From the NCBI RefSeq assembly GCF_045037415.1, contig NZ_CP173438.1: a stretch of 64,000 nucleotides of DNA; one strand, given 5' to 3'. The notes under the pieces were generated by a model. It ran no database searches. It saw only the letters and a list, made by a program, of their open reading frames with translations, and was not told the DNA's origin. This stretch comes from Escherichia coli (GTDB taxonomy: Bacteria > Pseudomonadota > Gammaproteobacteria > Enterobacterales > Enterobacteriaceae). Made by a program: the position numbers and the translations under genes. Of the stretch, positions 61,592-61,658 are shown one piece after another. Every line of letters begins with the position of its first letter. The first letter of the stretch is position 1.

Positions 61592-61617
61592 AATTTAGTT
61601 GGATAGCTCGTTTTATA

Positions 61618-61644
61618 AATTCGCCAGACACTGTCTGGCGAATT
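61618..61644. terminator. palindromic terminator between convergent nanQ and gltD
   Basis: aattcgccagaca c tgtctggcgaatt (13-bp arms) with a T-rich tract on the gltD side. Confidence 0.7.
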
Positions 61645-61658
61645 CATTGTTACCTCGC

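Follow-up and report, generated by a model that had tools for sequence, protein, structure and literature searches.

The nanQ-gltD junction

The window analysed here is a 64-kb stretch of Escherichia coli DNA. On its + strand, the nan genes follow one another in the order nanR, nanA, nanT, nanE, nanK and nanQ, with nanQ at the end of nanATEKQ; the nanQ call is backed by the open reading frame (ORF) list and by the RefSeq annotation of identical DNA. gltD faces nanQ from the opposite strand, and gltB lies beyond gltD as seen from the spacer (Table 1). The first-pass annotation of this DNA had described two full-length genes with stops 67 bp apart and had read them as a clean alternative junction, not a truncation; both points hold against the ORF list and the K-12 gene lengths. 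It had also given the gene order of K-12, and correctly: the annotation of a K-12 derivative gives nanQ, yhcG, yhcF, yhcE::IS5, yhcD, yhcA, gltF, gltD, and the stated difference of ~8 kb agrees with the 8,397 bp that separate the nanQ stop from the gltD stop in K-12. The nan and gltBD operons abut in the window because yhcG, together with the K-12 fimbrial genes, is missing here.

Table 1 Features of the nanQ-gltD junction in the window (palA and palB are the two palindromes of the K-12 locus)
Feature	Position	Strand	Description
nanQ (yhcH), N-acetylneuraminate anomerase	61127-61591	+	154 aa, as in K-12; stop codon TAA at 61589-61591
Spacer	61592-61658		67 nt between the convergent stops
nanQ-proximal flank	61592-61618		Homologue of the left-hand palA flank in K-12, L001, L003, L124 and E. 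albertii (alignment)
Inverted repeat	61615-61630 and 61632-61647		Two 16-nt arms, 94% complementary, 1 nt between them
Palindrome core	61619-61643		Perfect 25-nt palindrome ATTCGCCAGACACTGTCTGGCGAAT, palB type (repeat search)
gltD-proximal flank	61644-61658		TCATTGTTACCTCGC, 15 nt, same as K-12
gltD, glutamate synthase small subunit	61659-63077	-	Full length, 472 aa, the K-12 length

The inverted repeat is the only one in the spacer, and its perfect core is separated from the nanQ stop by 27 nt and from the gltD stop by 15 nt. One palindrome shared by the two genes had been correctly noted, but the extent given for it (61618-61644) was slightly too small, as the imperfect arms reach 61615-61647. 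A degenerate form of the core (up to 2 mismatches) matched once in the 64-kb window and in none of 100 shuffles. Compared with its homologues, the nanQ-proximal flank carries three substitutions and an 8-nt insertion, TGGATAGC, at 61600-61607. The gltD-proximal flank is missing from the yhcG-only allele, E. fergusonii and E. albertii.

Palindrome copies, alleles and breakpoints at the locus

The window core with one base on each side is identical at 27 of 27 positions to a copy inside yhcG (L001 2951-2977; core 2952-2976), and L004, L005, L206 and E. fergusonii L208 have this core as well. No yhcG gene lies within the window and the palindrome is intergenic here; the junction palindrome is an orphan copy of the YhcG-family coding palindrome. 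In K-12, two related palindromes bracket the 8.4-kb yhcG-to-gltF block. palA (ATTCTGCAGACACTGTCTGCAGAAT, L002 3663-3687) follows the nanQ stop by 19 nt and precedes the yhcG stop by 15 nt, and palB (ATTCGCCAGACACAGTCTGGCGAAT, L002 12001-12025) lies 15 nt before the gltD stop, with one mismatch to the window core. palA differs from palB and the window palindrome at 4 of 25 positions, which make up two compensatory pairs. The palindrome had been put forward earlier as the site flanking the block, and the arrangement in K-12 supports that idea. The window spacer fits it as well: in the alignment it is a hybrid, with the nanQ-side flank of palA joined to a palB-type core and the K-12-identical 15-nt gltD-side flank of palB.

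Within yhcG, three tandem 39-nt units carry one palindrome each and encode IRQTVSGELTPLG, IPQTPSAEFPSAK and IWQTLSAKSFPLP. The number of units varies, with two instead of three in L124 and in one E. fergusonii allele. The E. albertii yhcG keeps codons 1-122 and then runs into a hybrid palindrome whose left arm is that of the third internal copy and whose right arm is that of palA, followed by the nanQ flank. This allele is a deletion between two palindrome copies, by which the nuclease domain was lost. In the L206-type allele, the edge of the third internal palindrome is the exact point at which homology to intact yhcG starts. The window junction conforms to this pattern of palindrome-edge breakpoints. 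In E. coli the palindrome sequence was found at this locus only (5,121 genomes with a match, of 5,426 searched); a palindromic query scores both strands, so that 1-2 sites per genome are returned as 2-4 places, with a median of 2.

Alleles were counted with junction-spanning probes in 5,426 complete E. coli genomes. The window junction, nanQ directly against gltD, was covered contiguously by its 251-bp probe in 946 genomes (17%) and is therefore not an assembly artefact. Genomes of this type include O127:H6 and MCJCHV-1, which we take to belong to phylogroup B2. The commonest state is not the K-12 block but yhcG alone beside gltD: yhcG or its 5' part directly adjoins gltD in 3,140 genomes. Among these, 718 are of the L206 type, in which a ~470-bp segment takes the place of palA and of the 3' part of yhcG. 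The K-12 gltF-gltD junction was found in 1,223 genomes, and ~117 had other, unclassified junctions. yhcG is kept at least partly in 80% of E. coli genomes, and the most frequent allele has palA and lacks palB. The replacement segment of the L206 allele (L206 893-1364) encodes a 101-aa protein annotated 'transposase', for which no Pfam or NCBIfam family match was found.

The yhc locus gltF-yhcADEF, of the beta chaperone-usher class, has been reported from phylogroup A strains only, with the IS5 in yhcE peculiar to K-12 (PMC5216030, passages on the yhc locus). Together with yhcG, the genes of this published presence/absence polymorphism are those missing from the window. The K-12-type count of 1,223 of 5,426 genomes agrees with the phylogroup A restriction as worded in those passages. 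The loss of yhcG, the exact junctions and the palindromes come from the present analysis and do not appear in the passages of PMC5216030 on the yhc locus. The gene-content polymorphism is ordinary accessory variation, partly published. What is new here is the nature of the palindrome: an orphaned copy of a conserved, covarying coding palindrome of the YhcG family that marks the breakpoints of several alleles.

A palindrome in YhcG/DUF1016 genes

The nuclease domain of YhcG, an uncharacterised protein of the PD-(D/E)XK type, is similar to archaeal Holliday-junction resolvases (PMC1189080). YhcG matches at full length the PADLOC profiles of PDC-S02, a candidate defence gene (E = 3e-136, residues 8-370). 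Many PDC-S02 HMMs reach no further than the first ~100-125 residues of YhcG and end at the palindrome position, which hints that truncation at the palindrome is common in annotated genomes. A search for a solved structure of YhcG or a homologue found none. In the AlphaFold model, residues 101-125 of E. coli YhcG, the palindrome-encoded part, form low-confidence coil between helices, and the palindrome is predicted to encode a disordered linker.

A scan with the pattern ATTCNNCAGACNNNGTCTGNNGAAT, taking one genome per species, returned at least 120 loci from most bacterial phyla, whereas about four matches were expected by chance (calculated). We define the YhcG-family palindrome here as ATT-N7-CA-S-TG-N7-AAT with 11-12 complementary arm positions. 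Among the matches listed, the palindrome lies inside a YhcG homologue at 95 of 120 loci and is in frame 0 at 99 of 101 sites, and the two unconstrained positions are complementary at 82 of 99 sites, against an expected 1/16. A synonymous third position is coupled in this way to the second position of the partner codon, and the pairing is therefore not a product of protein selection. The window core satisfies the definition with 12 of 12 pairs; it does not lie in frame inside a YhcG homologue, a situation that it shares with ~24 of the 120 loci among the matches listed, which are orphan and non-coding.

An unbiased set was assembled from 80 homologues on viral contigs, picked only by their C-terminal nuclease motifs and representing 74 distinct genes. 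In 60 of the 74, the best in-frame 11+3+11 palindrome at YhcG residues ~85-140 beats the rest of the gene. The mean was 9.47 Watson-Crick pairs out of 11, compared with 5.04 after synonymous-codon resampling, and 61 genes reached p <= 0.01. The peptide motif I-x-Q-T-x-S-x-E alone was rejected as the cause on the basis of this resampling and of the coupled third and second positions. The stems are wholly different between lineages, as in ATTGTCGTATCACTGATACGACAAT and ATTGCGTCCGCAGTGCGGACGCAAT. Across 58 distinct sites, 86.8% of cells were paired versus 28-42% for slid partners, and all 11 pairs covary with double-sided changes. The covariation score was 0.659 versus 0.149 in shuffles, a value that none of 500 shuffles reached. 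Such covariation of the arms could stem from quasi-palindrome template-switch correction without any function.

Several further arrangements were seen. In a Rhodothermales metagenome-assembled genome (MAG), a 1,012-aa ORF (L082 2430-5468, - strand) consists of ~37 tandem 78-bp repeats with two palindrome units each, and lies directly upstream of a yhcG homologue (1198-2361) that contains the same palindrome. Orphan palindromes occur in Clostridia MAGs (L094 9272-9296, L121 6275-6299 and L122 4549-4573). Two of these have ~130 nt of upstream flank in common and lie between promoter-like TTGTAA...TATGAT/TATACT elements and the ribosome-binding site of an unrelated 365-aa gene, a position that may be operator-like or 5'-UTR-like. 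A Cytophagales MAG (L118) has three copies, at 110, 793 and 1463, with conserved flanks and ~680-bp spacing in a short-ORF context. In L162 and L164, a lineage-specific palindrome (e.g. ATTTTCCAGTCAGTGA[C/T]TGGAAAAT) is found both ~50 nt upstream of the start of the yhcG homologue and at residue ~99, an upstream and internal pair that would suit an operator pair.

A search of the freely accessible literature found no published description of a palindrome or hairpin in DUF1016/YhcG. We tentatively propose that YhcG/DUF1016 (PDC-S02) genes throughout Bacteria may carry an undescribed cis-acting, in-frame DNA palindrome in a disordered linker, of which the nanQ-gltD junction would be one scar. 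Supporting this reading are the co-evolving Watson-Crick arms, the 39-nt in-frame duplication, which in one MAG has grown to an array of roughly 37 x 78 bp, the orphan copies near and far, and the role of the palindrome as a hot spot of deletion and replacement. In the boldest reading, the palindrome, as a cruciform or hairpin, would be a putative substrate or operator of the Holliday-junction-resolvase-like YhcG. If so, yhcG and its site would form a self-contained unit for recombination, regulation or defence.

Origin of the window allele

To place the window allele, we turn to the outgroups. E. fergusonii has the order nanQ-palA-yhcG-gltD. In Salmonella, two extra genes follow nanQ, and yhcG still adjoins gltD; besides yhcG, the interval there (L212 6550-9070) holds one gene for an amidohydrolase and one for a permease of the cytosine/purine type. 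In E. albertii and the divergent lineage L124, yhcG or a remnant of it adjoins gltD, and a gltD-side hairpin, CAGCGCCG...CGGCGCTG, is common to these two and most E. coli. This comparison shows yhcG beside gltD to be the ancestral Escherichia/Salmonella arrangement. With yhcG beside gltD in E. fergusonii, E. albertii and Salmonella, the window allele is therefore a derived loss. E. marmotae has no yhcG and instead carries an unrelated seven-gene chaperone-usher fimbrial operon in the interval (L213 10546-17015). Cargo differs across species, which marks the nanQ-gltD interval as a hot spot of insertion and deletion. The E. marmotae and Salmonella junctions were inspected for a palindrome to date palB, and none was present.

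The flanks of the junction record a more complex history. Seven substitutions cluster at 61683-61722 (- strand), in the last 45 nt of gltD (alignment). The K-12, L001, L003 and L206 alleles lack the cluster, while four of the seven are common to L124. The closely related strain L001 carries yhcG, even though its nanQ is 99.7% identical to that of the window and its gltD nearly identical from about 200 nt onwards; mismatches between the two run 7, 3, 0, 1, 1 and 0 per 100 nt. We infer that ~61592-61722 may be a short junction tract, old or imported, that was set in by homologous replacement. Because K-12 and the window differ at the seven sites, one palA x palB deletion in a K-12-like chromosome is too simple an account. 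Despite these differences in the adjacent 45 nt of gltD, the two share palB and the 15 nt next to it. Flanking divergence, used to order a step from K-12 type to window type, gave a mosaic pattern, and no genome with a structure intermediate between the alleles was identified. In addition, the yhc island is reported only from phylogroup A in the published passages on the locus, while the window-type genomes include O127:H6 and MCJCHV-1, presumably B2.

We consider it probable that the spacer is a derived, yhcG-less allele that arose by recombination or deletion between palindrome copies and then spread, and that the palindrome is a DNA-level element. In this scheme, an event between two copies (palA x palB, or their equivalents in a donor lineage) would have created the junction and removed yhcG plus whatever adjoined it. 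The short segment ~61592-61722 would then have entered the window lineage by homologous replacement. The leftover hairpin most likely now serves just as a stem-loop at the 3' ends of the convergent nan and gltBD transcripts. The YhcG-family palindrome itself would act at the DNA rather than the RNA level, as its perfect symmetry, local duplication, surviving orphans and use as a preferred breakpoint suggest.

Two alternative readings place the palindrome at the RNA level. It might be a bidirectional intrinsic terminator of the convergent operons, its identity with yhcG being incidental. Its position between convergent stops is that of Rho-independent bidirectional terminators, and so is the stability of its stem-loop, with 12-15 bp just past the stop codons: the spacer RNA folds at -19.1 kcal/mol (+) and -23.1 kcal/mol (-), with z = -3.4 and -5.6, and none of 200 shuffles was as stable. 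UUUAUAAAA also follows the palindrome on the gltD strand. However, a terminator scan of 61300-61900 on both strands found no terminator-like site, as there is no U-tract. The tails, TTCATTGT (+) and TTTATAAA (-), contain no run of at least 5 T in the 8 nt after the stem, and the hairpin falls outside the simple definition of an intrinsic terminator because this T-run is absent. Moreover, a 27/27 match to an internal yhcG segment cannot be chance, the hairpin derives from the coding region of an absent neighbour, and the terminator-like hairpin that ancestrally follows gltD is a different sequence. A present role at the 3' ends is compatible with the derived-allele explanation and leaves the origin of the palindrome unexplained; as the whole account, termination is unlikely. 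Alternatively, the coding palindrome could be an mRNA hairpin, a translational or stability element, with the intergenic copies as by-products. In its favour are the stability of the stem and its conserved place in the transcript. Against it, G·U pairs make up ~2% of cells (roughly 12 of 597), a rarity about equal to that of other mismatches, and sense-strand A·C/C·A mismatches (22) outnumber G·T/T·G (7), with no wobble bias. Pairing reaches a 1-nt centre (CA-S-TG), which an RNA hairpin cannot use, and the centre base is C or G about equally often. Copies are also found in opposite-strand contexts and in contexts that do not look transcribed. The rare G·U pairs, the single-base centre and the lack of wobble bias point to a DNA-level palindrome and not an mRNA helix, which makes this reading very unlikely.

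At the DNA level, the window junction might instead be ancestral, the yhcG block and later the fimbrial island having integrated site-specifically and duplicated the palindrome as attL/attR. This would account for related palindromes at both ends of the K-12 block, and the cargo of the interval, a hot spot of insertion, differs between Salmonella, E. marmotae and K-12. Yet the empty site is not the ancestral state: all outgroups examined have yhcG beside gltD, with the other gltD-side hairpin and no palB, and the most frequent E. coli allele has palA without palB. End repeats are present, but no recombinase or integrase was found in or beside the block; apart from yhcG and fimbrial genes, the K-12 annotation gives only an IS5 inside yhcE. 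The palindrome also lies in the yhcG reading frame in distant phyla and is therefore a property of the gene, not of a chromosomal site. We regard site-specific integration as quite unlikely. Finally, a short, perfect, intergenic palindrome, with orphan copies in other phyla of which some have common flanks (L094/L121), could belong to a dispersed family of intergenic repeats, REP/BIME-like or MITE. Such a family is highly improbable as the source, and it was rejected because matches in E. coli are confined to this locus, with one copy in the 64-kb window. The palindrome also has no known similarity to the REP consensus. A search of Rfam, even at E <= 10, gave no relevant match in window positions 61000-62000 or in five palindrome-bearing loci.

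Known systems resemble the derived-allele reading in part. Rickettsia palindromic elements (RPE; Ogata et al. 2000, 2002, cited in PMC4316617) are likewise palindromes in frame within ORFs, tolerated by the protein and also found between genes. RPEs measure 100-150 nt, are genus-specific and sit in many unrelated genes, whereas the YhcG palindrome is 25-27 nt long, keeps to a single homologous position within one gene family in many phyla, and shows no dispersal in E. coli. REP/BIME elements with their RAYTs are also short intergenic palindromes beside a nuclease-type gene, sometimes in arrays. In contrast, REP copies are dispersed and run to hundreds, they lie outside the RAYT coding sequence, and a Y1 (HUH) transposase mobilises them, while the YhcG palindrome has 1-5 local copies, a master copy within the coding sequence and a putative PD-(D/E)XK nuclease. 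Palindrome instability is well known from E. coli genetics, through hairpin-mediated deletion and template-switch correction of quasi-palindromes. These mechanisms predict what is seen here, namely palindrome-edge breakpoints, variable copy number and concerted arm changes that are Watson-Crick only, but, being generic, they leave the retention of one particular palindrome at one codon position across phyla unexplained.

The difference in gene content carries no obvious phenotype beyond the loss of a candidate defence nuclease. Breakpoints at palindrome edges are seen in at least three independent alleles, which together are carried by E. albertii and about 30% of E. coli genomes. They are evidence, at base-pair resolution, that structural variation at this core-genome hot spot is organised by a 25-nt palindrome. 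The palindrome also exposes a nucleotide-level constraint inside a widespread, uncharacterised nuclease family, a candidate for phage defence, and gives it a candidate substrate or operator. As a natural protein-coding palindrome whose arms force coupled amino-acid changes, the element bears on how DNA-level elements live within genes.

A second presence/absence difference lies near the nanQ-gltD junction, between sspB (55511-56008) and nanR (56116-56907). E. fergusonii and E. marmotae lack a dcuC-family gene at this position, as does the window, in which just ~107 bp (56009-56115) separate the two genes. E. coli EC12 (L003) carries a 1,368-bp dcuC-family transporter gene there, presumably dcuD/yhcL of K-12.
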